This document shows positions 18,557 to 60,973 of a stretch of 64,000 nucleotides of DNA, in pieces. Source of the DNA: Isurus oxyrinchus (lineage: Eukaryota); the NCBI GenBank assembly GCA_026770705.1, contig JANJGN010000071.1, positions 1,054,001 to 1,118,000 on the forward strand. Reading direction: 5' to 3'. The translations under genes were made by a program, and so were the position numbers. The notes under the pieces are model-generated. The model did not search any database. It was not told the origin of the DNA and worked only from the letters and a program-made list of their open reading frames with translations. Position 1 is the stretch's first letter, and every line of letters begins with the position of its first letter.

Positions 18557-18595
<39 letters not shown>

Positions 18596-29519: not shown

Positions 29520-29885
29520 TTGGACTGTCACAAGAGTGGAAAGGTGACACTCCACGAGAGGTGACAGCGCAGGAAGGTTCCTGTGTACAGATTCCATGTC
29601 ATTACAGTTATCCATCACATTTGGAAAAGCAACCACGAGTTGGAATCTGGTTTAATAATGAGGAATGGAGAACATCGTCTATAGCCTTTCACTCCAAGGA
29701 TCACAGTCACGAGTTACCTCGGTTCCACCATCGGACCCGGCTGTCTGGAGACCTGAAAGATGGTGACTGTTCCCTGATTATAAAGAACATCAGACGGGAA
29801 GATGCAGGACCTTATTTTTTCAGAATAGAATTTGACAGCAGAAATAAATACAGCTACTATCCTGTAACCCAGCTTCACGTTTCTG
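29520..29885 (+). CDS. Gene A Siglec V-set (sialic acid-binding) domain exon
   Basis: EGSCVQIPC, GIWF, GDLKDGDCSL, EDAGPYFFRIE (essential Arg), NKYSY; 366 nt, phase 1-1, canonical ag/gtaag. Confidence 0.93.
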
Positions 29886-30743
29886 GTAAGTGCTGTGTTA
29901 TAATTACTCAACAATTCACATCCAACACTCAATGGGAAACAACACAAACTGTGACGTTTACATATTAACACAAAACACAGCTTATTATAACACATTGTCT
30001 GATTCTCAATAACCTGCTGACAGCTTCCAGTTCAGTCCTAAAGCAACCTCTAAAATCACTTTAATATCAATGATGAAAAGCATTAACTGTATTATCAGGT
30101 TATCCACTCCCATCAATCTCTCCTGTCCTGTTTAAAAGTCTGACTTATCGATAAAAGAAAGATGTGCATTTCTGCAGCGCAATTTACCACCTCAGGAGGA
30201 TCCAAATCCCTTCACAGCCAATGAAATTATTCCTGAATTGTAGTCACAGATGTTAAACACAGCAGGCAGTTTGTGCACAGCAAGATCCAACAAACCACAA
30301 GGTGATAAATCACCCAGATCACTGAGGAAATGAGAAGCCAGTGAACTCAAACCTCTGGTCTGATGAAGAGTCATACGGACTCGAAACGTTAACCCTGTCT
30401 TCCTCTCCACTGATACTATCAGACCTGCTGAGTCTTTCCAGCAATTTTTGTTTTGGTTTCAGATTTCCAGCATCCGCAGTATTCTGCTTTTAACTCCAAT
30501 CTCTGGTCTGAGCCTCTTCTCTCATCCAGTGTTCTCAATTCACATGTCTCGGAGTGAACGTGTATTAAGCTGAGAGACAGAAACACTACTGCCAAAGAGC
30601 AAGAAAATCTTTCCTGATCATTGTAACCTCTCAGTTCTGATATCATCCTTGTAAAAGTGCTTTCTCTTGTGGGACTGTGGTTTCTATTTGAACTGATGCT
30701 TCACGTTATATTTCTCTAAAAGGATCCATTCTCTGTCTGTTAG

Positions 30744-31040
30744 ATTTCACAGATAAACCCATGATATTCCCTGCTGAAATTATTGCAGGAAAGCGTGTGG
30801 ATGTAAGCTGCACCTTCAACACAACGTGCAATGGAACAGCAGCACCTGTCTTAACCTTGGACACTCCCACTGACGTACGTGGATCAGTCTCAAACACTGT
30901 AACTCAGCATGGTGTCACTCTGACCTATACTTCTGTTCTGACCCTGATCCCATCACTCAAACACCACGGACACACACTCAGCTGCAGAGTGAGATATCCA
31001 TCTGTTTCATCGGAGCGGACCCTCGTACTAACTGTGCAAG
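30744..31040 (+). CDS. Gene A Siglec domain-2 C2-set exon
   Basis: DFTDKP...VSCTFNTTCNGTAAP (extra Cys for the D1-D2 disulfide)...TSVLTLIPSLKHHGHTLSCRV; 297 nt, phase 1-1. Confidence 0.92.
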
Positions 31041-31259
31041 GTAAGAATGGACACCCTTCATTCTACATTAGCTAGAAAGCTCTACATAGTACATTGCAAG
31101 ATCCCACAACTGCATTGCGTTTAGCAACAAATCAATAGTCTTTAACTGATACAAATTCACCTCTGACACTGCAGCAGTCCCTGAATACTGATTCTCCAAC
31201 ACTGCAGCACTCCCTCAGTACTGAGTCTTGTTCACAATGAAATCTTTAATTGTTCTTAG

Positions 31260-31352
31260 ATGTACCACAGAATCTCTCATTTACTTCGCTTGATATGATT
31301 AATGCTTCATCGATCAATATAATTGAGGGGTTCATAACCATCACTGTGGAAT
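31260..31352 (+). CDS. Gene A internally deleted C2 mini-exon (31 aa); inclusion uncertain
   Basis: Start and end of the C2 repeat exon joined at gagggg (189 nt deleted); splice sites and frame intact. Confidence 0.5.
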
Positions 31353-32018
31353 GTGAGTTAATGCAAACTTCAACATCACTCACACACACGCACACACACA
31401 CACACACACACACATGCAGAAACACACACAATCTCAACTCACACAAGCACACACACACACACATGCATAGACAGACACACGTGCGCACACACACACAAAC
31501 ACACATGAGTGCGTGCACACACACAGATCCTTATTTTACAGAAACATACACACACAAGCCAACACACACATACACACACAAAAACATGTGGGTTCCCTCT
31601 CCTCTCCCAGTGCTGCACTGGAGTCTCAGTATCAGCTTCTATTCTTTGTTGATGAAAGGTAAACTCCAGATCATCAAGACACTGAACTGGATGGAGCAAC
31701 CTCCTGAAGAGTGAATTGTAGATTTACCCCTCAGTGCTCCATTGGTCAAATACAATTCATTGCCTTTGAAGCCCTTGGGGACATCCTGAGGATCTGAAAG
31801 GGAGTTTCCTGCATTCTAGATGGACACCTCCACTGGTGGGAGAATGTAACTGCAGTGTGACAGTTTACATAGGCAGTGCCCATTGTAAATGTGAAATAAG
31901 TTCTTATCCTGAGGGAATGTACCTGGAAATGCATTCAGACATCAGATACAGAGACATGATGCATGGAGTCTTGCTGTGCACTATATTTGCTCATATTAAA
32001 ATCTTTCTATGTTTATAG

Positions 32019-32300
32019 ATGCACCACGGAATCTCTCAATTACTTCTCTTGATATGATTAACGCTTTATCGATCGATGTAATTGAGGGGAATTCTGCAGT
32101 GATAATCTGCTCTGTCGAGAGCTTCCCAGCTTCTAACCTGACGTGGCGACATCTTAATGTCCCAATGAACAGAACAAGTTCCAGCAATGAGCTGTGGTTG
32201 GTGATTCCTCACGTTACATCCAGGGACACTGGAGACTATCAGTGTGTGGCAGAGAATGTATATGGAGCAGTGGAGGGGTTCATAACCATCACTGTGGAAC
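32019..32300 (+). CDS. Gene A C2 repeat exon 1
   Basis: 282 nt, phase 1-1; IICSVESFPASNLTW...DTGDYQCVAEN. Confidence 0.9.
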
Positions 32301-32326
32301 GTGAGTTACTGCAAACTTCAACATCA

Positions 32327-32373
<47 letters not shown>

Positions 32374-32980
32374 ACACACGTGCACACTACTCATAAACAT
32401 ACACACACATTCACTCATGCACAGAAATATACACAAAGACACACTCACATATGCGCAAACACATACACACATGCACACACAGACGCATGCGTGCATACTC
32501 ACACAAACACACTCACATGTGCAGAAACACAAACACAAACACATACACACACATGAGGTCCCTCTCCTCTCTCAGTGCCGCACTGGAGTCTTGGTATCAG
32601 CTCTGATTCTGTGTTGAAGGAAGGTAAACTCCAGATCAGCAAGACCCTGAATTGGATGAGCAACCTCCTGAACAGAGAAATGTAAATTTACCCCTCAGTG
32701 CTCCATCAATCAAATACAATTCATTCCCGTAAATCCCTTGGCAAAATCTTGAGGATGTGAAAGTTTCTTTCATTCTAGGTGGACAGCACCTCTACTGGTG
32801 GGAGAATGTAACTGTAGTTTGACTGTTTACATAGGCAGTGCCCATTATAAATTTGACAGTGGAAGTTATATGGAGGGAAGGTACCCGGAATTGCATACAG
32901 ACATCAGATACAGAGAGATGATGCATGGAGTCTTGCTGTAAATTGTGCTTGCTCACATTAAACACTTGATTTGTTTTTAG

Positions 32981-33262
32981 ATGCAGCACAGGATCTCTCA
33001 TTTACTTCACTTGAAATGATTAATGCTTCATCAATCAATATAATTGAGGGGAATTCTGCAGTGATAATCTGCTCTGTCGAGAGCTTCCCAGCTTCTAACC
33101 TGACGTGGCGACATCTTAATGTCCCAATGAACAGAACAAGTTGCAACAATGAGCTGTGGTTGGTGATTCCTCATGTTACATCCAGGGACACTGGAGACTA
33201 TCTGTGTGTGGCAGAGAATGAACATGGAGCAGTGGAGGGATTCATAACCATCACTGTGGAAT
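32981..33262 (+). CDS. Gene A C2 repeat exon 2
   Basis: 282 nt, phase 1-1; extra Cys (NRTSCNN), DYLC. Confidence 0.9.
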
Positions 33263-34005
33263 GTGAGTGCACACAGACATCTACATCACACAAACACACA
33301 CACACATGCAAAAACACTCATGTGTAGACACAAACATGCACGCTTACACACAAACATACGTTCAAACACATACACAGAAACACACACAAACTCAACTCAC
33401 ACATACAATCATTCATGCGCACACGTAGACACACGTATACACACACACTCCCTCAAGCACAGATGTACACACGCAGACCCACATACACACGCGTGCCCAC
33501 ACATGCGCAGACAGACACGCGCATACACACAAATACAAACTCACTTGTGCAGAAATACACACACACACACAAGTGTGAGATCCCTCTCCTCTCTCAGTGC
33601 TGCACTGGAGTTTTGGTATCAGCTCTGATTCTGTGTTGAAGGAAGGTAAACTCCAGATCAGCAAGACCCTGAATTGGATGAGCAACTTCCTGAACGGAGA
33701 ATTGTAGATTTACTCCTCAGTGCTCCATCGATCAAATACAATTCACGGGCTTTCAATCCCTTGGGGGCATCTTGAGAGTGTTAAAGGATGTTTGTTTCAT
33801 TCTAGGTGGACAGCAACTCTGTTGGTGGGAGAATGCAACTGCAGTGTGACAGTTTACATAGGAAGTGCCCATTATAAATGTGACAGTATTTTTTCCTGCG
33901 GGAAGGTACCTGGAAATGCATTCCAACATCAGATACAGAGAGATGATGCATGGAGTCTTGCTGTGCACTGTGCTTGCTCACAGTAAAATCTTTATTTGTT
34001 TTTAG

Positions 34006-34287
34006 ATGCTCCACAGAATCTCTCAATTACTTCTCTTGATATGATTAATGCTTCGTCGATCAATATAATTGAGGGGAATTCTGCAGTGATAATCTGCTCT
34101 GTCGAGAGCTTCCCAGCTTCTAACCTGACGTGGCGACATCTTAATGTCCCAATGAACAGAACCAGTTCCAACAATGAGCTGTGGTTAGTGATTCCTCACG
34201 TTACATCCAGGGACACTGGAGACTATCAGTGTGTGGCAGAGAATGAACATGGAGCAGTGGAGGGGTTCATAACCATCACTGTGGAAT
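34006..34287 (+). CDS. Gene A C2 repeat exon 3
   Basis: 282 nt, phase 1-1, intact. Confidence 0.9.
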
Positions 34288-34316
34288 GTGAGTTAACGCA
34301 AACTTCAACATCACTC

Positions 34317-34358
<42 letters not shown>

Positions 34359-35029
34359 ATGTAGGCACACACATGCATAATTATACACACACAGTCATAC
34401 ACGTACAAACACATACACAGGAAAATACACACCCATCTCAAACACACACATATTCATGCCCACACATAGACACACACATGCACATACTCTCACTCATGGA
34501 CAGACGTAGACACACAGACACACGCGCATGCACACACACAGATGCATGTGTGCATACACACACAAACACACTCACATGTGCAGTAACACAAACACACACA
34601 TACACACGCGTGAGTTCTCAGTGCTGCACTGGAGTCTTAGTATGAGTTCCGATTCTGTGTTGAAGGAAGGTAAACTCCAGATCAACAAGACCCTGAATCG
34701 GATGAGCAACCTCCTGAACAGAGAATTGTAGACTTACCCCTCAGTGCTCCATCGATCAAATACAATTCATTGCCTATCAAGCCCTTGGGGACATCCTGAG
34801 GATATGAAAGCAAACTTCTTTCATTCTAGATGGGCAACACCTCTGCTGGTGGGAGAATGCAATTGCAGTGTGACAGTTTACATAGGCAGTGTCAATTATA
34901 AATGTGCCATAAGACCTTATCCTGAGGGAAGTTACCTGGAAATGCATTCAGACATCAGACACAGAGACATGATGCATGGCGTCTTGTGCACTATGTTGCT
35001 CACGTTAAAATCTTTATATATATATATAG

Positions 35030-35311
35030 ATGCATCATTGAATCTCTCAATTAATTCTCTTGATATGATTAACGCTTCATCGATCAATATGATTGAGGGG
35101 AATTCTGCAGTGATAATCTGCTCTGTCAAGAGCTTCCCAGCTTCTAACCTGACGTGGCGACATCTTAATGTCCCAATGAACAGAACAGGTTCCAACAATG
35201 AGCTGTGGTTGGTGATTCCTCACGTTACATCCAGGGACACTGGAGACTATCAGTGTGTGGCAGAGAATGAACATGGAGCAGTGGAGGGGTTCATAACCAT
35301 CACTGTGGAAC
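35030..35311 (+). CDS. Gene A C2 repeat exon 4 (acceptor preceded by a (TA)n run)
   Basis: 282 nt open frame; weak polypyrimidine tract. Confidence 0.8.
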
Positions 35312-35357
35312 GTGAGTTAATGCCAACTCAACATCTCTCTCATACACGCACACACAC

Positions 35358-35393
<36 letters not shown>

Positions 35394-36122
35394 GCACACA
35401 CACACACACACTCATGTGTAGACACATACGTGCACATTTACACACACAGTCATACACGTGCAAAAACAGACACAGAAACACACATACACTCAACTCACAC
35501 GCACACACTCACACAGGCACACATATAGACATACACATGCACTCACGTTCACTCATGCACAGACGTATACACAAAGACACACTCACATATGCGCAAACAC
35601 ATACACACACGCACACACAGACACATGCGTGCATACACACACAAACACACTCACATGTGCAGAAACACAAACACACACATACACACGCATGAGGTCCCTC
35701 TCCTCTCTCAGGGCTGCACTGGAGTCTTGGTATCAGCTCCGATTCTGTGTTGAAGGAAGGTAAACTCCAGATCAACAAGACCCTGAATTGGATGGAGCAA
35801 CCTCCTGAACAGAGAATTGTAGACTTACCCCTCAGAGCTCCATCGATCAAATACAATTCATTGCCTATCAAGCCCTTGGCAAAATCCTGAGGATGTGCAA
35901 GGAAGTTTCTTTCATTCTAGGTGAACAGCACCTCTACTGGTGGGAGAATGTAACTGTAGTTTGACTGTTTACATAGGCAGTGCCCATTATAAATTTGACA
36001 GTGGAAGTTATATGGAGGGAAGGTATCTGGAAATGCATACAGACATCAGATACAGAGAGATGATGTATGGAGTCTTGCTGTGCATGCTGCTTGCTCACAT
36101 TAAAAACTTTATTTGTTTTTAG

Positions 36123-36404
36123 ATGCTCCACAGAATCTCTCAATTAATTCTCTTGATATGATTAATGCTTCATCGATCAATATAATTGAGGGGAATTCTG
36201 CAGTGATAATCTGCTCTGTCGAGAGCTTCCCAGCTTCTAACCTGACGTGGGGACATCTTAATGTCCCAATGAACAGAACAAGTTCCAACAATGAGCTGTG
36301 GTTGGTGATTCCTCACGTTACATCCAGGGACACTGGAGACTATCTGTGTGTGGCAGAGAATGAACATGGAGCAGTGGAGAGATTCATAACCATCACTGTG
36401 GAAT
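36123..36404 (+). CDS. Gene A C2 repeat exon 5 (chimeric)
   Basis: 282 nt; 5' part like exon 8, 3' part like exon 2. Confidence 0.88.
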
Positions 36405-37151
36405 GTGAGTGCACACAGACTTCAACATCACACACACAAACACACACACACATGCAAAAACACTCATGTGTAGACACAAACATGCACGCTTACACACAAA
36501 CATACGTTCAAACACATACACAGAAACACACACAAACTCAACTCACACATACAATCATTCATGCGCACACGTAGACACACGTATACACACACACTCCCTC
36601 AAGCACAGATGTACACACGCAGACCCACATACACACGCGTGCCCACACATGCGCAGACAGACACGCGCATACACACAAATACAAACTCACTTGTGCAGAA
36701 ATACACACACACACACAAGTGTGAGATCCCTCTCCTCTCTCAGTGCTGCACTGGAGTTTTGGTATCAGCTCTGATTCTGTGTTGAAGGAAGGTAAACTCC
36801 AGATCAGCAAGACCCTGAATTGGATGAGCAACTTCCTGAACGGAGAATTGTAGATTTACTCCTCAGTGCTCCATCGATCAAATACAATTCACGGGCTTTC
36901 AATCCCTTGGGGGCATCTTGAGAGTGTTAAAGGATGTTTGTTTCATTCTAGGTGGACAGCAACTCTGTTGGTGGGAGAATGCAACTGCAGTGTGACAGTT
37001 TACATAGGAAGTGCCCATTATAAATGTGACAGTATTCTTTCCTGCGGGAAGGTACCTGGAAATGCATTCCAACATCAGATACAGAGAGATGATGCATGGA
37101 GTCTTGCTGTGCACTGTGCTTGCTCACAGTAAAATCTTTATTTGTTTTTAG

Positions 37152-37433
37152 ATGCTCCACAGAATCTCTCAATTACTTCTCTTGATATGATTAATGCTTC
37201 GTCGATCAATATAATTGAGGGGAATTCTGCAGTGATAATCTGCTCTGTCGAGAGCTTCCCAGCTTCTAACCTGACGTGGCGACATCTTAATGTCCCAATG
37301 AACAGAACCAGTTCCAACAATGAGCTGTGGTTAGTGATTCCTCACGTTACATCCAGGGACACTGGAGACTATCAGTGTGTGGCAGAGAATGAACATGGAG
37401 CAGTGGAGGGGTTCATAACCATCACTGTGGAAT
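37152..37433 (+). CDS. Gene A C2 repeat exon 6
   Basis: 282 nt; same protein sequence as exon 3. Confidence 0.88.
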
Positions 37434-38175
37434 GTGAGTTAACGCAAACTTCAACATCACTCACACGCACACAGACACACACACACACACACACACACAG
37501 ACACATGTAGGCACACACATGCATAATTATACACACACAGTCATACACGTACAAACACATACACAGGAAAATACACACCCATCTCAAACACACACATATT
37601 CATGCCCACACATAGACACACACATGCACATACTCTCACTCATGGACAGACGTAGACACACAGACACACGCGCATGCACACACACAGATACATGTGTGCA
37701 TACACACACAAACACACTCACATGTGCAGTAACACAAACACACACATACACACGCGTGAGTTCTCAGTGCTGCACTGGAGTCTTAGTATGAGTTCCGATT
37801 CTGTGTTGAAGGAAGGTAAACTCCAGATCAACAAGACCCTGAATTGGATGAGCAACCTCCTGAACAGAGAATGGTAGACTTACCCCTCAGTGCTCCATCG
37901 ATCAAATACAATTCATTGCCTATCAAGCCCTTGGGGACATCCTGAGGATGTGAAAGCAAACTTCTTTCATTCTAGATGGGCAACACCTCTGCTGGTGGGA
38001 GAATGCAATTGCAGTGTGACAGTTTACATAGGCAGTGTCAATTATAAATGTGCCATAAGACCTTATCCTGAGGGAAGTTACCTGGAAATGCATTCAGACA
38101 TCAGACACAGAGACATGATGCATGGCGTCTTGTGCACTATGTTGCTCACGTTAAAATCTTTATATATATATATAG

Positions 38176-38457
38176 ATGCATCATTGAATCTCTCAATTAA
38201 TTCTCTTGATATGATTAACGCTTCATCAATCAATATAATTGAGGGGAATTCTGCAGTGATAATCTGCTCTGTCGAGAGCTTCCCAGCTTCTAACCTGACG
38301 TGGCGACATCTTAATGTCCCAATGAACAGAACAGGTTCCAACAATGAGCTGTGGTTGGTGATTCCTCACGTTACATCCAGGGACACTGGAGACTATCAGT
38401 GTGTGGCAGAGAATGAACATGGAGCAGTGGAGGGGTTCATAACCATCACTGTGGAAC
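38176..38457 (+). CDS. Gene A C2 repeat exon 7 (acceptor preceded by a (TA)n run)
   Basis: 282 nt; near-copy of exon 4. Confidence 0.8.
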
Positions 38458-38503
38458 GTGAGTTAATGCCAACTCAACATCTCTCTCATACACGCACACA
38501 CAC

Positions 38504-38539
<36 letters not shown>

Positions 38540-39270
38540 GCACACACACACACACACACTCATGTGTAGACACATACGTGCACATTTACACACACAGTCA
38601 TACACGTGCAAAAACAGACACAGAAACACACATACACTCAACTCACACGCACACACTCACACAGGCACACATATAGACATACACATGCACTCACGTTCAC
38701 TCATGCACAGACGTATACACAAAGACACACTCACATATGCGCAAACACATACACACACGCACACACAGACACATGCGTGCATACACACACAAACACACTC
38801 ACATGTGCAGAAACACAAACACACACATACACACGCATGAGGTCCCTCTCCTTTCTCAGGGCTGCACTGGAGTCTTGGTATCAGCTCCGATTCTGTGTTG
38901 AAGGAAGGTAAACTCCAGATCAACAAGACCCTGAATTGGATGGAGCAACCTCCTGAACAGAGAATTGTAGACTTACCCCTCAGAGCTCCATCGATCAAAT
39001 ACAATTCATTGCCTATCAAGCCCTTGGCAAAATCCTGAGGATGTGCAAGGAAGTTTCTTTCATTCTAGGTGAACAGCACCTCTACTGGTGGGAGAATGTA
39101 ACTGTAGTTTGACTGTTTACATAGGCAGTGCCCATTATAAATTTGACAGTGGAAGTTATATGGAGGGAAGGTATCTGGAAATGCATACAGACATCAGATA
39201 CAGAGAGATGATGTATGGAGTCTTGCTGTGCATGCTGCTTGCTCACATTAAAAACTTTATTTGTTTTTAG

Positions 39271-39552
39271 ATGCTCCACAGAATCTCTCAATTAATTCTC
39301 TTGATATGATTAATGCTTCATCGATCAATATAATTGAGGGGAATTCTGCAGTGATAATCTGCTCTGTCGAGAGCTTCCCAGCTTCTAACCTGACGTGGGG
39401 ACATCTTAATGTCCCAATGAACAGAACAAGTTCCAACAATGAGCTGTGGTTGGTGATTCCTCACGTTACATCCAGGGACACTGGAGACTATCAGTGTGTG
39501 GCAGAGAATGAACATGGAGCAGCGGAGGGATTCATAACCATCACTGTGGAAC
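39271..39552 (+). CDS. Gene A C2 repeat exon 8
   Basis: 282 nt, phase 1-1. Confidence 0.9.
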
Positions 39553-40529
39553 GTGAGTTAACACAAGCTTCAACATTACTCTCACATATACACAGACACA
39601 CTCATACACACACACACACACACACACGTGCACACAAACAAGCATTCATGTGCAATCCCACATGTCCACAGGTGTGTACGCCTGCATGCTCACACACAGA
39701 AGGAAACATACACAGAATCACACGTGTGCTTGCTCACACACACACACACAGACATGTGTGAGTTGTCTGTTCTCCCTGTGCTGCACTGGAGCGTTGCTCC
39801 AGATTCTGCTCTGAAACACTGACGACATCAGCTGAACAAGACCCTGTATTGGACGAGCAGCCCCCTGCACAGAGAATTGTAGGTTTATCACCCCATTATT
39901 CTAAAGCAATTCCTCCACTGTCAAATCTCCATAAATATCCTGATGATGTGAAAGACATTTTCTTTTCTTCTAGCCCGACAGTGTCTCCTCTGGTGGAAGG
40001 CTGTAATTACAGCGTGACAGTTTACATATCCACATGCAGCAAGAGCTGAACAACATTCAGCTTGGGCTGAGACAATTAATGCATCACAAGTACCAGGCAG
40101 TGATCATGTCCAACAAGAGAGAATCTAACCATCTCCCCTTGATGTTCAGTGAGTTTACTATCACAGAATCCCCCACAATCAACATCCTGGGGGATGTTAA
40201 CCAAACAACTAACTGGACCGGCCATAAATACTGTGGCTACAGGAGCCGGTCAGAGGCTGGGAATTCTGTGGGGGTGAAAAACTCACCACCACCTCCTCAA
40301 GGGCAATTAGGGATGGGTAATAAATGCTGGTCTAGATAGATACAGCCACTTCCCATGAATGTACAAAAAGAAAAACACCGGCAGTGACCATTATAAAAGT
40401 TGACATAGGAACTTAAAACAGGAAAGAACTCTTGAAATGCACATAGACACCAAATAGAGAGAGATGTATCATGGAGTCTTGCTGTGCACTGTGTTTGCTC
40501 ACAATGAAACCACCTTTATTTGTATCTAG

Positions 40530-40811
40530 ATGCACCACGGAACCCATCAATTACTTCTCTTGATATGATTAACGCTTCATCGATCAATATAATTGAGGGG
40601 AATTCTGCAGTGATAATCTGCTCTGTCGAGAGCTTCCCAGCTTCTAACCTGACGTGGCGACATCTTAATGTCCCAATGAACAGAACAAGTTCCAACAATG
40701 AGCTGTGGTTGGTGATTCCTCACGTTACATCCAGGGACACTGGAGACTATCAGTGTGTGGCAGAGAATGAACATGGAGCAGTGGAGGGGTTCATAACCAT
40801 CACTGTGGAAC
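40530..40811 (+). CDS. Gene A C2 repeat exon 9
   Basis: 282 nt, phase 1-1. Confidence 0.9.
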
Positions 40812-41568
40812 GTGAGTTACTGCAAACTTCAACTTCACTCACACACACACACACACACACATACACACACACACACACGTGTAGGCACACACATGCACAC
40901 TTATACACACACAGTCATACACGTGCAAACACATACAGAGGAATATATATACACAACTCACACACACACACACATTCATGCCCACACATAGACACACACA
41001 TGCACATTCACTCACTCTTGGACAGACATTGACACACAGACATGCGTGCATGCGCACACACAGATACATGTGTGCATACACACACAAGCACACTCACTTC
41101 TGCAGAAACACAAACACTCACACACTCTCACACATACACAAATATGAGTTCCCTCTCCCCTCTCAGGGTGCACTGGAGTCTCGGTATCAGCTCTGATTCT
41201 GTGTTGAACGAAGGTAAACTCCAGATCAACAAGTCCCTGAACTGGAGGAGCAACTTTCTGAACAGAGAATGGTAGATTTACCCCTCAGTGCTCCATCAAT
41301 CAAACATTGCCTGTCAAGCCCTTGGCGAAATCCTGAGAATATGAAAGCAAGCTTCTTTCATTCTAGAGTGACAACACCTCTACTGGTGGGAGAATGCAAT
41401 TGCAGTGTGACAGTTTACATAGGCAGTGTCCATTAAAAATGTGGCATAAGACCTTATCTTGAGGGAAGTTACCTGAAAATGCATTCAGACATCAGATACA
41501 GAGACATGATGCATGGAGTCTTGCTGTGCACTATGTTTGCTCACGTTAAAATCTTTATATGTTTTTAG

Positions 41569-41850
41569 ATGCATCACGGAATCTCTCAATCAATTCTCTT
41601 GATATGATTAACGCTTCATCGATCAATATGATTGAGGGGAATTCTGCAGTGATAATCTGCTCTGTCAAGAGCTTCCCAGCTTCTAACCTGACGTGGCGAC
41701 ATCTTAATATCCCAATGAACAGAACAAATTCCAACAATGAGCTGTGGTTGGTGATTCCTCACGTTACATCCAGGGACACTGGAGACTATCAGTGTGTGGC
41801 AGAGAATGAACATGGAGCAGTGGAGGGGTCCATAACCATCACTGTGGAAC
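41569..41850 (+). CDS. Gene A C2 repeat exon 10
   Basis: 282 nt, phase 1-1. Confidence 0.9.
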
Positions 41851-42515: not shown

Positions 42516-42582
42516 GACTATCAGTGTGTGGCAGAGAATGAACATGGAGCAGTGGAGGGGTTCATAACCATCACTGTGGAAT
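42516..42582 (+). pseudogene. 3' fragment of an additional C2 repeat exon
   Basis: DYQCVAENEHGAVEGFITITVE plus donor gtgagt; 5' part missing. Confidence 0.8.
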
Positions 42583-42596
42583 GTGAGTGTGGAGAT

Positions 42597-43401: not shown

Positions 43402-43498
43402 GTAGAGACTCCAGTAAAGGGACAGTAGGATTGTTCACAGCTGGGATCATGTTGAGTGTTTTCCTGGCTGGAATCTTCATCTTCATCTGTGTGAGAAA
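43402..43498 (+). CDS. Gene A transmembrane exon (RDSSKGTVGLFTAGIMLSVFLAGIFIFICVRK)
   Basis: Acceptor ttttacag; uncharged hydrophobic segment of about 22 aa; phase 1-2; donor gtaagt. Confidence 0.88.
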
Positions 43499-45562: not shown

Positions 45563-45811
45563 GGTAAACAGAACGTGCTGATTACTGAGCCCCAGAACAC
45601 AACCAGAGACACAACTAGTGAGGGGGAGACCCCAGCTCCCCGGGATCTCTCTGAAGGTCCAGTGGGAGGCGATGTTGGACATGGGAACCCCGACAATACC
45701 GACGACCTTCTCTACGCCAACATCAACTTTTCAAAGCTGCCCAGCGGTGACAGGACTGTGCACAGGAGCGAGGACACGGAATACACACAGATCAGGTTCC
45801 AGAAAAACTGA
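45563..45811 (+). CDS. Gene A terminal cytoplasmic exon with ITIM (LLYANI) and ITSM (TEYTQI)
   Basis: Acceptor ctctgtag, phase 0; DDLLYANINF...EDTEYTQIRFQKN*, the tail layout of CD33-related Siglecs. Confidence 0.9.
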   Translation, partial: GKQNVLITEPQNTTRDTTSEGETPAPRDLSEGPVGGDVGHGNPDNTDDLLYANINFSKLPSGDRTVHRSEDTEYTQIRFQKN

Positions 45812-48459: not shown

Positions 48460-49025
48460 GTCTGGCACAGTTTTATGAAGGTCCCCTCACACCCAATCTG
48501 GAGTCACTGGGTTCAGTCCAGAACACCGCACCTCAGGGAGGATATATTGTCCTTGGAGGGGGTGCTGTGCAGAGTCACCAGAACGATCCCGGGGCTGAAA
48601 GGGTTAAATCCCGAGGACAGGTTGCACAGACCAGGCTTGTGTTCCCTCCAGTCTCGAAGATTAAGGGGTGATCTAATCGAGGGGTTTAAGATGATTAAAG
48701 GATTCGATGGGGTCGATAGAGAGAAACTATTTCCCCTGGTGGTGGGGGTGAGGTGAGGGGGGGTCCAGAACAAGGGGGCAGAACATTAACATTGGAGCCA
48801 GGCCATTCAGGGGGTGATGTCAGGAAGCACTTCTTCACACAAAGCGGGGGTGGAAATCTGGAACTCTCTCCCCCAGAAAAAGCTGTCGAGACTGGGAGGG
48901 GTCAATTGTAAATTTCAAAACTGAGATTGGGAGATTGTTGTTGGGTCGGGGGTTAAGGGTCACGGAACCGAGGTGGGTGGATGGGGCTAAGATACAAATC
49001 GGACATGATCCAATCAAATGTTAGG
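48460..49025 (+). mobile_element. CR1 LINE 3' fragment
   Basis: PHLREDILSLEGV...SLQSRRLRGDLIEGFKMIKGFDGVDREKLFPLV. Confidence 0.85.
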
Positions 49026-52023: not shown

Positions 52024-52025
52024 CA

Positions 52026-52090
52026 CTATCAGTGTGTGGCAGAGAATGAACGTGGAGCAGTGGAGGGATTTATAACCATCTCTGTAGAAC
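52026..52090 (+). pseudogene. Gene C: 3' fragment of a C2 exon fused to the duplicated upstream region
   Basis: YQCVAENERGAVEGFITISVE plus donor gtgagt. Confidence 0.8.
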
Positions 52091-52124
52091 GTGAGTTACA
52101 CAGAATTGAACATTCTCTTGTTGT

Positions 52125-53160
52125 TAGCTCATGGGATGTGGGCATTGTTGACAAGGCCAGAAATTATTGCCCATTTGTAACTGCCCCTTGAGGAGGTGGT
52201 GGTGAGTTGCCTTCTTTAACCACTGCAGTCCATGTGGTGTAGGCACACCCACAGTGCTGTTAGGGAGGGAGTTCCAGGATTTTGACCCAGCGACAGTGAA
52301 GGAACGGCCGATAAAGTTCCAAGTCCAGGGCAGACCACCACCTCATGTTCACCTCCAAATCACAAACCACACTGACTTGGAACTGTCCTGGTGGAAGAGG
52401 TTAAGGGTTTGGAAAGTGCTGTCGAAGGAGCCTAGGTGAGTTGCTGCAGTGCATCTTGTAGATGGTGCACACTGCTGCCATTGTGTGCCAGTGGTGGAGG
52501 GTATGAATGTTTATGCTGGTGGATGGGCTGTCGATCAAACAAGCTGCTCCTGGATGGTGTCGAGCTTCTTGAGTGTTGTTGGAGCCGCACTCATCCAGCC
52601 AAGTGGAGATTATTCCATCACACTCCTGACTTCTGCCTTGTCGATGGTGGACAGGCTTTGGGGAGTCAGGAGGTGAGTTACTCACCACAGAGTACCCAGC
52701 CTCTGACCCGCTCTTAGCCACATTATTTCCTGTTGCCAGGTGATTGCCAGGGCCAACAGCCTTTGCTGTATTCAGTATCATCAGCTGATTCCTGATGTCA
52801 CGTGGAGTCAATCGAATTGTCTGAAAGCTGACATCTGTGATGCTGGGACCCTCTGGAGGAGGCCGAGATGGAGCATCCACTCAGCACTTCTGGCTGAACA
52901 TGGTTGCCAATGCTTCAGCCTTGTCGTTTGCACTGATGTGCTGAGCTCCCCCATCATTAAGGATGGGGATATTTGTGGAACATCCTCCTCCTGTTAGATC
53001 TTTAATTGTCCATCACCATTCATGACTGGATGTGGCAGGACTGCAGAGCTTAGATCTGACCCGTTGGTTGAGGGATCGCTTTGCTCTGTCTATAGCATGT
53101 TGTTTCCGCTGTTTGGCGTGTATGTAGTCCTGTGTGTCACCTCAGCAGCTTGGCACCTCT
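52125..53160 (-). mobile_element. CR1-like LINE remnant
   Basis: AVCTIYKMHCSNSPRLLRQHFPNP; same family as 46995-48070. Confidence 0.8.
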
Positions 53161-53351
53161 GTTATATGTGAATCCTCCTTATAGAAACCTGCATGTACAT
53201 GGATATTATCAATAAATATTACATAGATAAATGTTATTTGTATAGACCTTTCATGCATAGACAATATCACTTCACAAGTTCAGAATTACTACATGTACAT
53301 AGGGAACCATTCTCAAACTGTACCGGAGTCATTCATTGGCTGATTTTACAG

Positions 53352-53448
53352 GGCGAGATTCCAATGAATGGAAAGCAGGATTGCTTGGAGCTGGAATCTG
53401 TTTGAGTGTTGGACTGAGTGGATTCTTCATCTTCAAGTGTGTGAGAAA
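53352..53448 (+). pseudogene. Gene C transmembrane exon (RDSNEWKAGLLGAGICLSVGLSGFFIFKCVRK)
   Basis: 97 nt, phase 1-2, paralogue of 43402-43498, canonical splice sites. Confidence 0.8.
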
Positions 53449-53724
53449 GTAAGTGTGAAGGTTTAATTGGTTGTTTTTGAAAATGTTTTCTTCAACCTTC
53501 GCTCCTTATAGAAAAAACTTGCATTTCTATAGCACCTTTTACAATCCAAAACCCTTCACAGCCCCTGAAGAGTTTTGATGTTCAATCACTATTGAACACC
53601 TCATCCTACACTCCCTGTTTGACAACTCAGTCCTGTAACTGGCAGTTTTGACCCGGACCATAAAATACCCTGTGACCCCTTGAGGATGTGAAAGGTGCTA
53701 TATAAATGAAAACCTTTCTTTCGT

Positions 53725-54172
53725 TAGTGCATGCAATCTCATTCCATTTTCCATGTTTCATTCACTCTCTCTTATCTCCACTAATGCTGGCCTTCTCATT
53801 CTCTCTCTCATTCACTCTCTCTCCAATCTCCACTAATGCCCTCCTTCTCATTCTCTCTCTCATTCACTCTCTCTCCAATCTCCACTAATGCTCTCCTTCT
53901 CATTATGTCTCTCATTCACTTTCTCTCCAATCTCCACTAATGCTCTCCTTCTCATTCTCTCTCTCATTCACTCTCTCTCTTATCTCCACTAATTCACTCC
54001 TTCACATTCTTTCCATCATTCACTCTCTCTCCAATCTCCACTAACGCTCTATTTCTCATTCTCTCTCTCATTCACTCTCTCTCCTATCTCCACTAATGCT
54101 CTCCTTCTCATTCTCTCTCTCATTCACTCTCTCTCCAATCTCCACTAATGCTCTCCTTCTCATTCTCTCTCT
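53725..54172. repeat. ~50-bp CT-rich minisatellite
   Basis: Unit ctccactaatgctctccttctcattctctctctcattcactctctctccaat. Confidence 0.9.
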
Positions 54173-54399
54173 CGTCCTCTTACACGTTGTTCAGTCTCTC
54201 ACATTTTTAAGGAGCGCTGAGCTACATCTGCTCCTTCAGAAGATCCACCTCAACACCTGGAGTGAGCAGAGAATTGCAACTCGCTCAACGACTGCTCAGC
54301 TTTACACAGGAATCACGTCACAGAGTCAGGACAAAAAGGGTTAACAGTTTTCTTTCAACACAACACTAAGGCCCTACGTTTCAATGAAAGGGTTTTCAC

Positions 54400-54715
54400 A
54401 ATTGTTCCCCAATTCCTGATTTTGTCTCACAGAGACACATCAACCCTTTCTCATTAAATACACAGAGGGAGCAGCACAGGAAGAGGTCATTCAGCCCAAG
54501 CAGAGCGTGTGGGCAGTTCCTCCCCAGGCGAGCAGTCGGACAGGTCCTGGGTAAGTAACGGAACGATTGGAACTCACTTCCATGACCAACACCGTCCTTT
54601 GTTGATGTTGTGACTTTATAAAGACAGATTCCAATGATTGATGCCTTTGAAATATTTCTACTGATTATTGAGATCTGGGTGTGAGGCTCAAGTCTGTTGT
54701 ACAGAACATCTTTCT
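54400..54715 (+). repeat. Duplicated copy of the gene A promoter/exon 1 and start of intron 1
   Basis: Matches 25440-25755; donor at 54550; ETS site altered (aattcctgat). Confidence 0.8.
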
Positions 54716-55061
54716 GGTTAAATTATGCAGACAGGTTACACACAGTCTACAATTATATTCACTCGGGCCTAGAAGATTAAGGAGTGATCTAATTGAGGGG
54801 TTCAAACTGATTAAACACTCGATAGGGTCGATAGAGAGAAGCTATTCCCTCGGGTGGGGGTGGGTGGTGGGGGTCGGGTGGAGTCCAGAACAAGGGGGCC
54901 GGAACTTCAGATTGGAGCCAGGCCGTTCAGGGGTGATGTCAGGAAGCACTTCTTCACACAAAGGGGAGTGGAAATCTGGAACTCTCTCCCCAATAATCAA
55001 ACCCAACACCGAATACACATCATGTTGATTGTCACTCTGTCCATTTCCATCTCTATTACAG

Positions 55062-55166
55062 AAGAGAGGCGAGGGGAAAGCAGGAATCAAATCGAACCAC
55101 CGTGTTGATGAATATCGAGGTCCTGTTTATGAAAACTGTGAGCGTGGTTGGGCTTTGAGGAATCAG
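55062..55166 (+). pseudogene. Gene C cytoplasmic exon (KRGEGKAGIKSNHRVDEYRGPVYENCERGWALRNQ)
   Basis: Acceptor ctattacag, donor CAG|gtgagt, 105 nt, phase 0-0. Confidence 0.7.
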
Positions 55167-55302
55167 GTGAGTCACACACCACAGGATCACCAGCCTCTCA
55201 GCTGCTCCAGTAGCCTGGTTATTGATATGGCTGCTCCAGTCCTGTATCTGCAATGTTTTATACAGTCACTCCCAAACCCAACCAAACTCACACCCAACAC
55301 CA

Positions 55303-55652
55303 TTCAGAATCAATAATCAAACCCCGTTCAGTATCAATAATCAAACCCCGTTCAGTATCAATAATCAAACCCCATTCAGTATCAATAATCAAACCCCGTT
55401 CAATATCAATAAGCAAACCCCGTTCAGTATCAATAATCAAACCCCGATCAGTATCAATAAACAAACCCCATTCTGTATCAATAATCAAACCCCGCTCAGA
55501 ATCAATAATCAAACCCCGTTCAGTATCAATAATCAAACCCCGTTCAGAATCAATAATCAAATCCCGTTCAGAATCAATAATCAAACCCCGTTCAGAATCA
55601 ATAATCAAACCCCGTTCAGTATCAATAATCAAACCCTGTTCAGTATCAATAA
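55303..55652. repeat. 24-bp minisatellite
   Basis: Unit atcaataatcaaaccccgttcagt, about 14 copies. Confidence 0.95.
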
Positions 55653-55751
55653 TTAATGTATCCATTGTGGGTGGAATTTTCGATTTGGATCAATAATTCT
55701 AAACACTGATCACTCTGATTGTCACTCTGATCATTTCTGTTTCTATTACAG

Positions 55752-55868
55752 AAGAAAGATGAGAAGGATCTGGAAATGAAATCTAACCGCGGAGTCAATC
55801 CTGATACAGATGATGATCTTTACGCAAACTGTGAATTTGCCAAGGATTCTGTTTATGGGAATTTATAA
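55752..55868 (+). pseudogene. Gene C terminal exon (KKDEKDLEMKSNRGVNPDTDDDLYANCEFAKDSVYGNL*)
   Basis: Acceptor ctattacag, phase 0, stop at 55866-55868; acceptor region homologous to that of the preceding exon. Confidence 0.7.
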
Positions 55869-56984
55869 ACTGAGCAAGAATGAGACACACACAGTGTAGG
55901 GAGAATACAGAACGGGAGAATCATTCAAAACTCTAACTTACCTTCCTAATATCCACAGGAACTCACTCCCAGGAAATAGATTTAAACCTCTTGTTACAAT
56001 CTGATGGAATTTCTTCGGAATGATCTATCCAGGATGATTGTCTGTGGGTTTCAATTCGAACATCCTCCTTCAGAATTGTCCCTCCCTGTTGGAAACATCC
56101 TTCTCTCCATTCTGATTGTAAATGTCTTTAGATATCGTTCGATGATGTACCAGGACAGAACGGACAAATTCAATCCCGTGTCCATGATTATGAGTTAATT
56201 TTCATTCTGTTATTCACCTTCCTGTCAGTCAGTGTTTACAGAATATTCATCAGCCAGTGTAGACTTCAGGAAATGCAGGATCGGTGGATAATTGGAGCAG
56301 AGGAGATAGGCAAAATTTACTCAGCATTTTGTAATCAAATGTATTTTTAGATATATATTTGGATTTTACACTTCATCGTTAAACAGCAAAACTAACAGCA
56401 ATCTGGGAAACAGGGAAACAATTTGTTTGGAGATTTGAGAAATTCTCTGCAGCTCAGAGGAGAACAGATGTGCTACAGTGCCACCACTGGTGGGAGGACA
56501 TCATTTCAGCGTGACATGTTTACATTGATGTTGCCAGTGAACATAGGAAATTATGATGTGAAAAATTGGTTGCAGGTTTACCTTCTTCAGAAGTTCATGG
56601 ATGGATGAGACAGCTTTGATAACAGAATGAGATATAGCTGCAATAAACCTCAATTTTAGTCTTTCACACTTGGAGAGTACAATTAGCATCCATTCTGAAG
56701 GCTGAGTGGATGGGTGGACTGTGCGATGTGTTTCAGATCACAGAGACCAACATCCTTGATCCTGGTTCTGCTCTATGTTTGATGACATTCTTGGATAAAA
56801 GATTGGGAAAATAAATAATCCTCCTGCATTGATCTGTAACTGGTCTCTCCATCTGTCAATGTCCTGAGGAGAGAATTGGGTTTGAGGTCCAAAATCAGAT
56901 GCATACTTTGACTGCCCATTGAATAGGAACAGGAGGAGGCCATTCAGCCCCCTCGAACCTGCTACACAGGAACAAGAGAGCACC

Positions 56985-57200
56985 TGAAATAAAAACAGAA
57001 AATGCTGGAGAAACTGAGTAGGTCTGGCAGCATCTGAGGAGAGATAAACAGAATTAACATTTCGAGTCCGTATGACCCTTCTTCAGAGTCTCAAAGCAAA
57101 AACTCTGTTTCTCTCTCCACAGCTGCTGCCAGACTTGCTGAGTTAATGCAGCATTTTCTGTTTTTAGTTCAGATTTACAGCATCTGCAGTATTTATTTTC
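56985..57200. mobile_element. Palindromic Penelope-associated short element; related pieces at ~8030-8120, 30355-30495 and 61445-61580
   Basis: aaaacagaaaatgctgg...ctggcagc / gctgccag...cagcattttctgttttt inverted arms. Confidence 0.6.
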
Positions 57201-57202
57201 AA

Positions 57203-58625
57203 TGAGAGGAGGACATTCAGCCCCTCGAGCCTGTTACACAGGAACAGGAGGAGGCCCATTCTGTCCCCTTGAGCCAGTTACACAGGAACAGGAGGAGGCC
57301 CATTCTATCCCTTTGAACCTGTTACACAGGAACAGGAGGAGGCCCATTCTGTCCCCTCGAGCCTGTTACACAGGAACAGGAGGAGGCCCATTCTGTCCCC
57401 TTGAGCCAGTTACACAGGAACAGGAGGAGGCCCATTCACCCTCCTCGAGCCGGTTACACAGGAACAGGAGGAGGCCCATTCTGTCCCCTTGAGCCTGTTA
57501 CACAGGTACAGGAGACCCATTCAGTCTCCACCACCTTGTTACACAGGAACATTAGGGGCTCCATTCAGCCACTCAAGCCTGTTCCACATGAACGGGAACA
57601 AAAACAAAAATAGCTGGAAAAACTCAGCAGGTCTGACAGGATCTGCGGAGAGGAAGACACTTGACGTTTTGGGTCTGTATGACTCTTCATCAGAACTAAG
57701 GGAATCGAGAAATGAGGTGACGTTTTAGCTGGTAGAGGGGGGTGGGACAGGTAGAGCTGGATTGTGGGCCAGTGATAGGTGGAGGCAAAGAAGAGGTTGC
57801 CAAAGATGTGATAGACAAAAGGACAAAGGGGTGTTGACGGTGGTGATATTATCTGAGGAATGTGCTAATGGGGACATTAAGGGTAGAAAGCAGGACGAGC
57901 AAGAGACAGATAGTCCTAGTGGGGGTGGGGTGGGGGAAAGGATTGAAATAGGCTAAAAGGTAGAGATACAACAACAGATGTAAAACATTTAAAAATAATG
58001 GAAATAGGTGGGAAAAGAAAAATATATAAATAAAATAAATATTAAAAATGATCAATGATTGGAAAAGGGAGATTGGAAAGGGGGTGGGGATGGAGGAGAG
58101 AGTTCATGATCTGAAATTGTTGAACTCAATATTCAGTCGGGAAGGCTGTAAAGTGCCAGGTCGGAAGATGAGGTGTTGTTCCTCCAGTTTGTGTTGGGCT
58201 TCACTGGAACAATGCAGCAGGCCAAGGACAGACATGTGGGCATGAGAGCAGGGTGGGGTGTTAAAATGGCAAGCGACAGGGAGGTCTGGGTCATGCTTGT
58301 GGACAGACCGAAGGTGTTCATCAGAGCGATCACCCAGTCTGTGTTTGGTCTGTCCCATGTAGAGGAGACCACATTGGGAGCAGTGAAGGCAGTAGATTAA
58401 ATTGAGGGAAGTGCAAGTGAAATGCTGCTTCCAATGATGCTCCTAATGTACTCGAGCCTGGTACACAGGAACTGGGGAAGGCCAATTCAGCCCCTTTAGC
58501 CTTTTACACAGGAACAGGAGGAGGCCCATTCAGCCCCTCGAGCCTATAACACAGGAACAGGAGGAGGCCCATTCAGCCCACTCAAGCCTGTTACACAGGA
58601 ACAGGAGGAGGCCCATTCAGCCCAA
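57203..58625. repeat. ~42-bp CR1-tail-derived minisatellite (57203-57595, 58450-58625) split by a Penelope element
   Basis: Same unit as 10370-10732. Confidence 0.85.
57596..58432 (-). mobile_element. Penelope-like retroelement 3' end (GIY-YIG endonuclease)
   Basis: GQTKHRLGDRSDEHLRSV...LPVACHFN...KLEEQHLIFRPGTLQPSRLNIEFNNFR. Confidence 0.85.
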
Positions 58626-58759
58626 GCAGAGCGTGTGGGCAGTTCCTGTCCAGGCGAGCAGTCGGACAGGTCCCGGGTAAGTAATGGATCGATTGGAAAT
58701 CACGGGGGAAGTTCTGAGGGCTCCTAATCCATTGTCCTGTCTTCTAAATCAGCACCTTA

Positions 58760-59035
58760 ATACTGACCCTTCAACAGTGCGGTACTCCCTCAGTACTGAT
58801 CCTCCAACAGTGCAGCACTCCCTGATTAATGTCCCTCTGACAGTGCAGCACTCCCACAGTACTGACCCTCCAACAGTGCAGCACTCCCTGATAAATGTCC
58901 CTCTGACAGTGCAGCACTCCCTCAGTACTGACCCTCAAACAGTGGAGATCTCCCTCAGTACTGACCTTACAATAGTGCAACACTCGCTCAGTAATGACCA
59001 TCCGACAGTGCAGCACTCCCTCAGTACTGACACTG
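58760..59035 (-). repeat. 33-bp SINE-derived minisatellite
   Basis: Tandem units. Confidence 0.85.
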
Positions 59036-59264
59036 GGGAGTTTCAGTCTACTCTGTGGGGCAGACGTCCCATGAATGGGGTCTTGAATCCCACAACGTTC
59101 TGACCCCCTGAATTTGGCTGTGAAACCCACTGACCCACAGGAGAAACTCCTGGTCAATGACTGTCCTGTCCACCTCTGAGCAGAAATATCACCACAGGGT
59201 CAGGACACAAACGGTTAACAGTTCACCAACATCTCAAAACAAGAGCTGCTCTGTCACTTTGATC

Positions 59265-59406
59265 CAACTTCCTCATTTTGTCTCACAGAGACACATCAAC
59301 CCTTTCTCATTAAATACACAGAGGGAGCAGCACAGGAAGAGGTCATTCAGCTCAAGCAGAGCGTGTGGGCAGTTCCTCCCCAGGCGAGCAGTCGGACAGG
59401 TCCTGG
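59265..59406 (+). promoter_or_regulatory. Gene D putative promoter and non-coding exon 1
   Basis: Copy of 25445-25588 with an intact ETS site and gtaagt donor. Confidence 0.55.
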
Positions 59407-59815
59407 GTAAGTAACGGAACGATTGGAATTCACTTCCACCACCAACACCGTCCTTTGTTGTTGTTGTGACTTTATAAAGACAGATTCCAATGATTGATGC
59501 CTTTGAAAGATTTTTACTGATAATTGAGATCTGGTGTGAGGCTCAAGTCTGTTATACAGAACATCTTTCTAGCTCAAGGGATGAGGGAAGTGCAGAGACA
59601 TGAGATTTGGGATGCCCTGAGGTAGTGAAAGGTGCTATGGAAATGCAAATCCTTCATTGTTTGTCTTTCTTACAGCCTTGTAACTCTCTGCAGAGCACCT
59701 ATCATCCCACAGAGAATCAAATTATTCTGTGAAGACATTGTCTAAAAGCAGTTCTGATCTCTCGAGAGCATTCGGACAAGAGGTGAGGTCTCATTAACTC
59801 CTTTCTCTTTCACAG

Positions 59816-59894
59816 CTTGAGAGTGAGATGTGGATGGAATATCTGGGAGTGGACGATGATCGGGAAATCTACTTCCTCTTGTCACTTTCCCAAG
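59816..59894 (+). pseudogene. Gene D signal-peptide exon (1-nt deletion relative to gene A)
   Basis: ATG at 59856 to the donor is 39 nt, versus 40 nt in gene A. Confidence 0.75.
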
Positions 59895-60597
59895 GTAATA
59901 TCATCATCAGCTCAGACAGATTTATGTTTAACAGTCTTTGTAAAAGATCATTCTTATCTCTTAATCTCTGTAACCTCCTGCAACTCACCCAAACAACTTC
60001 CCAGATCTCTGTGTTACTCCAATTCCGGCCTCTTGACCATCCCCCGATTCCCATCACTCCAATACTGGCGGCCGGGCCTTCAGCTGCCTGGGGCCTGAGC
60101 TCTGGAATTCACTCCCTAAACCTCGGGGATGGAGGAGATCAGAGGGTTTCATTTTACTGAGAATCACCACGACCACATCACAGCTGCAGTCAGAATAGAC
60201 AGAGAGTCCAGCCCTCACACTTCCTGCACAGTTTCACCATAGCAACCACAATATGGAAATTTAAAAATACTGAAAGTTAAACTGAAGCTCAAACCAGTCA
60301 GTGTAGAGAGATGAGATGTTTACACAGTTTCCCTGTGTATCTTGTAGACACTGTGTTGGATGGAAGACTGGCTTCTCTAAACAGGGTCCTGAGGACCATG
60401 AGCCAATGTAGAATGAACTTGTCCACTCCTGTGTCCAGGATTCTCTTCCCTCCGTTGTGAAACCTTGGGGGGTTCTTTGTGTGTCCTGTAGATGGTCCAC
60501 ACTGCAGCCACAGTGCCCCAGTGATGGAGGGGGTGGATATCAAGTCTAGTGGATCTACAAACCATCCAGAGTTAAATATTGATATTTCTCTCCCCAG

Positions 60598-60973
60598 TTG
60601 GACTGTCACAAGAGTGGAAAGGCGACACTCCACGAGAGGTGACAGCGCAGGAAGGTTCGTGTGTACAGATTCCATGTCATTACAGTTAATCATCACATTT
60701 CGTAGGGAGATCACGTGTCGGAATCTGGTTGAAAGGAATAGATGGGAACCCACAGCCTAAATGGTCTATAGCCTTTCATTCCGAGGGTCACAGTCACAGG
60801 GATCAAAGATTCCGCCATCGTACCCGGCTGTCTGGAGACCTGAAAGATGGCGACTGTTCCCTGATTATAAACAAAATCAGACGGGAAGATGCAGGACCTT
60901 ATTTTTTTCAGAATATAATTTGACAACAGGAATAGATACAACTATTATCCTGTAACCCGGCTTCATGTTTCTG
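60598..60973 (+). pseudogene. Gene D Siglec V-set exon (premature TAA at 60687-60689; +1 T frameshift at ~60902-60908)
   Basis: Clear paralogue of 29520-29885 with two disabling lesions. Confidence 0.88.

Follow-up and report, generated by a model that had tools for sequence, protein, structure and literature searches.

We report here on two Siglec-like genes, A and D, that lie on a 64,000-nucleotide stretch of the genome of the shark Isurus oxyrinchus (assembly GCA_026770705.1, contig JANJGN010000071.1, positions 1,054,001 to 1,118,000 of the forward strand; hereafter the window, from whose first letter coordinates are counted). The predicted sugar-binding loops of their V-set exons differ sharply, while the sequence downstream, including the exon for the second domain (D2), is nearly the same. 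A and D are two of approximately 500 Siglec-like V exons in this genome. We consider it likely that gene conversion and unequal crossing-over even out the introns, D2 and the V-set framework across the family, and that a few old loop types have been spared, probably through selection for several specificities. The contrast between A and D would then be mostly an old difference exposed by young flanks, and not the product of fast recent change. The segments compared are as follows.

29299..29519, plus strand: the part of the upstream intron common to A and D (60377-60597 in D), 8.1% diverged
29520..29885, plus strand: V-set exon of gene A, open, with an A-class C-C' loop
29596..29723, plus strand: divergence island (B-C loop, C-C' loop and C'-D), with an A/D class distance of 0.24-0.50 and a fixation index (Fst) of 0.85-0.96
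29823..29872, plus strand: module of the F-G loop and G strand, with two main types that assort apart from the C-C' loop
29886..30743, plus strand: V-D2 intron of gene A, evened out among the loop classes (in its 3' part, 1.6% between the A and D classes and 1.3-1.7% within classes)
30744..31040, plus strand: D2 (C2-set) exon of gene A, in which Leu replaces a conserved Trp (codon at 30857)
60598..60973, plus strand: V-set pseudo-exon of gene D, with a D-class loop and lesions common to paralogs
60974..61832, plus strand: V-D2 intron of gene D, 98.3% identical to that of A
61833..62129, plus strand: D2 exon of gene D

The original prediction, made from the window's letters, held that the V-set loops of the two genes had diverged between near-identical introns and D2 exons. 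The peptides it quoted for A and D were exact, down to the F-G differences and the one-base frameshift in D, and D2 does differ at few sites (7 of 297, or 2.4%). Near-identity was found to hold for one intron and not for both: the downstream introns differ at 14 of 858 aligned columns with one gap (1.6%), nine of the mismatches falling in the first 170 columns and five in the remaining 688, whereas the shared upstream part carries 18 mismatches in 221. Likewise the V exon, with 35 mismatches in 358 aligned columns (9.8%) and seven gaps, is more diverged than the downstream intron (Fisher p=7e-10) but not more than the upstream one (p=0.56). Mismatches between the two genes are clustered (a maximum of 19 per 100 columns, p=5e-5) and the longest identical run reaches 222 bases (p=0.003; 20,000 permutations each). 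The prediction also took it that the loop changes would not be mostly synonymous. Outside the C-C' loop, which has nine codons in A and 12 in D, cannot be aligned and was excluded from the pair's codon counts, synonymous sites in the loops were raised as much as replacement sites (proportions of synonymous and replacement differences, pS 0.35 and pN 0.27, p=0.77), against pS 0.115 and pN 0.017 in the framework. Such raised synonymous divergence is what an older block would be expected to show. A recent duplication giving rise to A and D as a pair was rejected, neither being the nearest relative of the other in any segment.

The two genes belong to a large family. In this genome 524 copies of a 26-base framework motif are present (control 0), and on the same contig set the loop motifs that define the classes number 272 for P, 90 for A, 68 for D and 66 for M; these are counts of exons, not genes, and both haplotypes may be included. 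Tandem V genes are common. Among 190 full V exons examined, a sample enriched for A and D by design, 121 are open and encode 92 distinct proteins, and of the 101 sampled from the initial 2.56 Mb of contig C52, 75 are open.

Distances along the gene were profiled in 58 genes sharing the intron type of A (31 A, 22 D and 5 P). Between the A and D classes the distance is 7.5% upstream, 5.9% in strands A-B, 30.5% in B-C/C, 22.9% in C'/C'-D, 3.9% in D-E-F and 10.6% in F-G; it then falls along the intron through 4.4, 2.5 and 1.6% and stands at 2.1% in D2. Distances within classes are the same as those between them in the 3' intron (1.3-1.7%) and in D2 (1.5-2.2%). Correspondingly, A/D Fst drops from 0.95 at the C-C' loop to about 0.05 within 200 bases of the donor, a peak that is partly by construction, the classes being defined by that loop, while the flank and cross-species results are not. 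In its intron, D itself is nearer to certain genes of the A and P classes than it is to most members of its own class. Recombination within the family is evident from 54 distinct genes with 229 informative sites, in which four-gamete incompatibility rises with distance from 0.11 to 0.27, the squared correlation between sites (r2) drops with distance, and a permutation test modelled on the pairwise homoplasy index (PHI) gives p=0.0005 (0 of 2000); the minimum number of recombination events (Rm) is 57, a figure that recurrent mutation may inflate, though not the distance trend. Patchwork conversion, which the original prediction had offered as an alternative and for which it had proposed conversion tests, is thereby supported by the PHI-like result and the decay of Fst, with its direction reversed: what is recent is the evening-out of the flanks, and it is the loop types that are old. 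Recombination is shown here, and conversion as the homogenising force is what we infer from it.

Comparison across species bears on the age of the loop types. We collected 145 V domains from 119 homologous proteins and kept 13 other species, excluding other rays and one MAG-like domain from this comparison; the evidence on flanks is at the protein level (framework and D2). P-type loops were found in nine of the 13 species, spanning four shark groups and sawfish (great white, basking shark, smooth-hound, two catsharks, bamboo shark, sawshark, sevengill shark and sawfish), and A-type loops in ten of 13 under a looser definition of the class, while M-type loops are confined to the two lamniforms. 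No D-type loop was present among the 145 domains, and a search aimed at the loop gave five proteins at 45-55% only; this negative is weak, protein sets omitting pseudogenes. A contig of sequencing run X2 matches the D loop region with 8 differences in 196 bases.

Outside the loops, sequences follow the species rather than the class. Framework distance is 0.123 between classes within a species and 0.189 within a class between species, and D2 identity is 88.3% and 80.2%, respectively. From lamniforms to sevengill shark, sawshark and sawfish the P loop motif is nearly unchanged while D2 identity falls to 71-86%, a conservation that argues against rapid turnover of the P class. On a framework tree of 70 domains, weakly resolved (62 columns, 44 of 61 forks open), taxon labels require 12 changes against 35 when shuffled and class labels 12 against 23, and holding P as one clade was rejected (approximately unbiased test, p=0.012). 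Furthermore, the pairing of C-C' loop with G-strand type is kept across species, 27 of 29 A-type domains carrying one type and 19 of 28 P-type domains the other (p=1.5e-6). In I. oxyrinchus the two G-strand types, 1 and 2, number 33 and 5 in open A exons, 5 and 49 in open P, 41 and 11 in broken D, and 1 and 9 in open D; they exchange Tyr for His at position 110 of A, the residue aligned with Trp106 of sialoadhesin.

These patterns probably arise as short, frequent conversion tracts, together with unequal crossing-over within a cluster of several megabases, keep the intron, D2 and framework uniform. Tracts across the loops would be rarer, mismatches and indels physically blocking them, and those that did erase a loop would probably be removed where a useful specificity was lost. 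New loop types may arise occasionally and spread, or die and yet stay copied (as D), M being restricted to lamniforms and D to this lineage, while segmental duplication would multiply live and dead copies alike.

The arms-race explanation put forward in the original prediction, in which ongoing positive selection drives the loops apart and the flanks are simply young, we regard as unlikely. The changes do lie on loops around the essential arginine, the very different new loop types M, D, K and W are lineage-restricted, and primate V-set domains evolve faster than D2, according to the available text of PMC6288428. The analysis of dN/dS (the ratio of replacement to synonymous substitution rates) across paralogous V-sets that the prediction had proposed likewise gave, when pooled, loops at twice the framework (1.07 against 0.49, p=3e-4). 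However, no part exceeded 1 significantly. With a tree for each segment of 99 distinct open exons, strands A-B (0.44) and D-E-F (0.51) both lie below 1, and B-C/C (1.16, p=0.55), C'/C'-D (0.98), F-G to the end (0.99) and F-G (1.24, p=0.55) do not differ from it; site mixtures for the same exons revealed no class above 1, and count-based ratios over 84 exons were 0.69 for framework and 0.88 for loops. Open exons may include unused copies, which would pull these ratios towards 1, and since the C-C' loop defies alignment across classes, the codon models do not reach episodic selection at the time a class was founded. Taken together, the tests gave no sign of ongoing positive selection, and diversifying selection is not supported by these exons. 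The arms-race reading is also at odds with a pS at least equal to pN in the A-D loops, with the P loop motif kept across shark orders and sawfish, and with D being a pseudogene.

We consider it quite unlikely that the classes persist through neutral escape, with indels and mismatches in tolerant loops blocking conversion tracts and no functional difference between the types. Loop dN/dS near 1, the coincidence of the islands with indels, and the mostly dead D class, which keeps its island while being multiplied with shared lesions (53 of 63 exons broken), would all fit such a history. It would not readily account for a P loop that stays nearly unchanged as far as sevengill, sawshark and sawfish over the range of D2 divergence given above, or for the association of C-C' and G-strand types across species, although short non-crossover tracts could produce the latter in the absence of selection. 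Very improbable, finally, is a single local event in which an A-like neighbour 31 kb away overwrote, or recombined with, the intron and D2 of D and so left an old V exon attached to a young body, as the steps in divergence (8% upstream, then 5% and 0.7% along the intron) and the 222-base identical run might suggest, the A/D intron distance of 1.6% being the family average and the pattern family-wide.

Several observations weigh against homogenised flanks around loop types spared by selection. Framework homogenisation is partial, class labels still being clustered on the tree. Synonymous tree length in the 99 open exons is not longer in the loops (1.4-1.9) than in the framework (1.4-2.2), and a loop dN/dS close to 1 is as compatible with relaxed constraint as with a mixture of positive and purifying selection. 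The D class has kept its loops in 68 copies, none of them seen joined to a membrane exon, which indicates that selection is not needed to maintain an island in the short term. The D2 tryptophan is present in 114 of 114 homologous hits and in 54 of 58 paralogs and is Leu in gene A. To the same side belong the qualifications given above for the exon counts, for the looser A class across species, for the resolution of the tree and for the Fst peak.

With respect to the proteins themselves, the model of gene A comprises a leader, V, D2, ten C2, a membrane-spanning and two tail exons, and is open over 1316 residues. Beyond the segments already given, its exons are:

26022..26061, plus strand: leader exon, 40 nt, in frame, followed by a GT donor
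32019..41850, plus strand: ten C2 exons of 282 nt in tandem, each open and bounded by AG/GT
43402..43498, plus strand: membrane-spanning exon, a hydrophobic stretch without a charged residue
44193..44274, plus strand: first tail exon, with tyrosine motif TNYIAL
45563..45811, plus strand: last exon, with LLYANI, of the immunoreceptor tyrosine-based inhibitory motif (ITIM) type, and a distal TEYTQI

The V domain of A resembles Siglec-5, sialoadhesin, CD33, Siglec-8 and MAG by sequence (phmmer E values near 1e-15 for Siglec-5 and 1e-14 for sialoadhesin), and it is roughly as similar to CD33-related Siglecs as to sialoadhesin or MAG. By fold it resembles a Siglec/sialoadhesin-type V-set: the structure predicted with an alignment has a predicted local distance difference test score (pLDDT) of 89.8 and a template modelling (TM) score of 0.87 to sialoadhesin, the fold from the single sequence being poor (pLDDT 61). 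Trp6, Arg101 and Tyr110 of A correspond in the alignment to sialoadhesin Trp2, Arg97 and Trp106, which we take to be the residues contacting sialic acid. As aligned with Siglec-5, A has Cys21 and Cys26 on strand B, Cys83 on strand E and Y-F-F-R instead on strand F, and its D2 has the extra, second cysteine, as in Siglecs; presumably these cysteines pair in disulfides in the Siglec manner. The role of the arginine is stated for Siglec-7 and -9 in the available part of PMC7165337. This strand-F Arg is present in 92 of the 99 distinct open exons, the rest including five with Thr and one with Lys, and in D its codon exists out of frame. Gene A has the essential Arg and the cysteine pattern of Siglecs in a V-set with a predicted Siglec-type fold. 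The uncharged membrane segment, the ITIM (whose signature is given in the accessible text of PMC7226832) and the distal ITIM-like motif point to an inhibitory-type receptor, and the heads of A would offer a predicted face for binding sialylated glycans. The Leu in place of the otherwise invariant D2 Trp (30857-30859) is shared by gene A with three other A-class genes and may impair folding.

In contigs from runs taken to be RNA, from related organisms, V is joined to D2 at the same GT-AG ends (runs X1 and X2, from one sample, and X7). These junctions support the exon model of the family, not expression of A, and no RNA dataset is listed as containing the A exon.

Gene D, by comparison, is a truncated pseudogene with four lesions. 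In addition to the segments listed above it includes:

59856..59894, plus strand: leader exon, 39 nt, frameshifted by a one-base deletion relative to 40 nt
62453..62604, plus strand: 5'-truncated C2 fragment after D2

Its V exon has an in-frame TAA at codon 30 (60687-60689), an extra T in the run 60902-60908 and a further TAA at 60916-60918, and neither a membrane nor a tail exon follows before the next gene, which begins about 3.6 kb past the end of the window. As a pseudogene, D is not under current selection as a membrane receptor. A homopolymer error as the cause of the frameshift was rejected: it occurs in 15 of 63 D-class exons, and the codon-30 stop in 13 of 63, and since the lesions are common to paralogs they are not assembly errors. 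Of the 68 D-class sites, all of them covered, five are 5'-truncated; the other 63 comprise 53 broken by a few shared lesions and ten that are open. An earlier view from the first 34 copies, that the class is wholly dead, was corrected accordingly. Because the lesions were spread by duplication, D copy number tells little about selection. Seven of the ten open exons have an intact leader, and none of these seven genes reaches a membrane exon before the next gene. For six of these seven genes (the seven being L138, L149, L150, L154, L157, L160 and L147) read-through after D2 would end within 1-18 codons, and secreted decoys are a possible product.

Several further arrangements were seen in the family. 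At G000:C52:2280476-2296477 nine P-type V motifs follow one another at about 2-kb spacing, runs of two to four being common elsewhere, which could represent multi-V receptors or splice cassettes. In the M/W class (e.g. L076, L080 and L094), usually first in tandem V genes, Thr replaces the essential Arg in five of ten distinct open exons, and a fifth loop class, K (L099, L102, L109, L120 and L130), has no open exon among its five. Within the window, a distant and broken V-set exon at 8690-9080, 31% identical to A and near to the divergent N-terminal domain of the sevengill-shark protein P0039, appears to represent a separate Siglec/MAG-like lineage within the cluster. Tail exons occur as repeated modules, a two-exon tail with a second copy, at 18111-21300 and also past the membrane exon in L171-L173 and L167; the tyrosine motifs of the first copy are altered, and these may be alternative tails with different signalling. 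An orphan C2 fragment with a second type of membrane exon lies at 52025-53448, with no V exon of the A/D family near, and at 31260-31351, as in L110 and L147, there is a mini-exon-like fusion of a C2 start and end with AG and GT ends.

Fast V-set evolution and conversion are already known in mammals: in primates it is established that the first Ig domain evolves faster and that paired Siglecs undergo conversion, as the accessible sections of PMC6288428, PMC13358205 and PMC5701461 describe. In this light the A/D contrast, with one partner dead, is ordinary. Less ordinary are several hundred V exons in one shark, falling into a few loop classes that persisted as the shark orders separated, while the remainder of the gene was repeatedly evened out. 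It is a tentative and somewhat doubtful suggestion that sharks carry in the germline a repertoire of hundreds of Siglec heads of inhibitory type, assembled from a few interchangeable modules (C-C' loop types and G-strand types) whose age exceeds that of the shark-ray split, and in which conversion would keep the scaffold uniform and occasionally reshuffle modules to yield a large innate glycan-recognition library. The classes further provide a natural test set of near-identical scaffolds that differ only in the C-C' loop or in the G-strand aromatic (Tyr or His at 110), and such natural swaps could reveal rules of Siglec specificity. A literature search without most subscription journals turned up no paper on the copy number or the loop classes of shark Siglecs; a whale-shark genome paper mentions Siglecs once in its available text. 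A teleost study of 2020 describes fish genomes as without inhibitory CD33-related Siglecs (PMC7226832, in the part available), whereas gene A shows that anatomy in a shark.

The direct homologs of these genes are shark and ray proteins automatically named Siglec-10/12/13-like, CD33-like or MAG-like, the names being database labels; they are 52-90% identical, all come from sharks and rays, and the closest (89-90%) are lamniform. Among characterised systems, the CD33-related Siglecs (-5, -7, -8, -9 and CD33) and sialoadhesin/MAG share with A the V-set followed by C2 domains, the essential Arg, the odd cysteines and the ITIM with a distal tyrosine motif, and this group supplies its best PDB matches by sequence and by fold; there too the V-set changes faster than D2 (PMC6288428). 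Unlike mammalian CD33-related Siglecs, gene A has ten tandem C2 domains, and where the mouse has five CD33-related genes (PMC4384638, accessible text), the shark has hundreds of V exons in discrete classes. The Siglec-11/16 and Siglec-5/14 pairs resemble the shark family in repeated conversion between paralogs, relaxed constraint and frequent null copies (available portions of PMC5701461 and PMC6288428), but there conversion brings the binding domains of the partners closer to each other, whereas in the shark it would spare the binding loops only. A parallel in pattern is offered by the red and green opsins, in which introns are homogenised within species around an exonic island shared across species, a 'peak of divergence' in the words of the accessible part of PMC3924837. 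In the shark family, too, flanks are alike across classes and recombine, and the island is shared between species while the framework and D2, compared as protein, follow the species. The opsins are two genes with known functional residues, in contrast to hundreds of shark copies in at least four classes with two separately assorting modules. In alignment the P loop falls on the Siglec-7 C-C' loop, and the original prediction's statement that this segment sets specificity is borne out in print, the C-C' segment being reported to switch specificity between Siglec-7 and -9 (PMC7165337, in the text available). By analogy with that specificity loop, whose position the island matches, the shark loop types would be predicted to differ in function.

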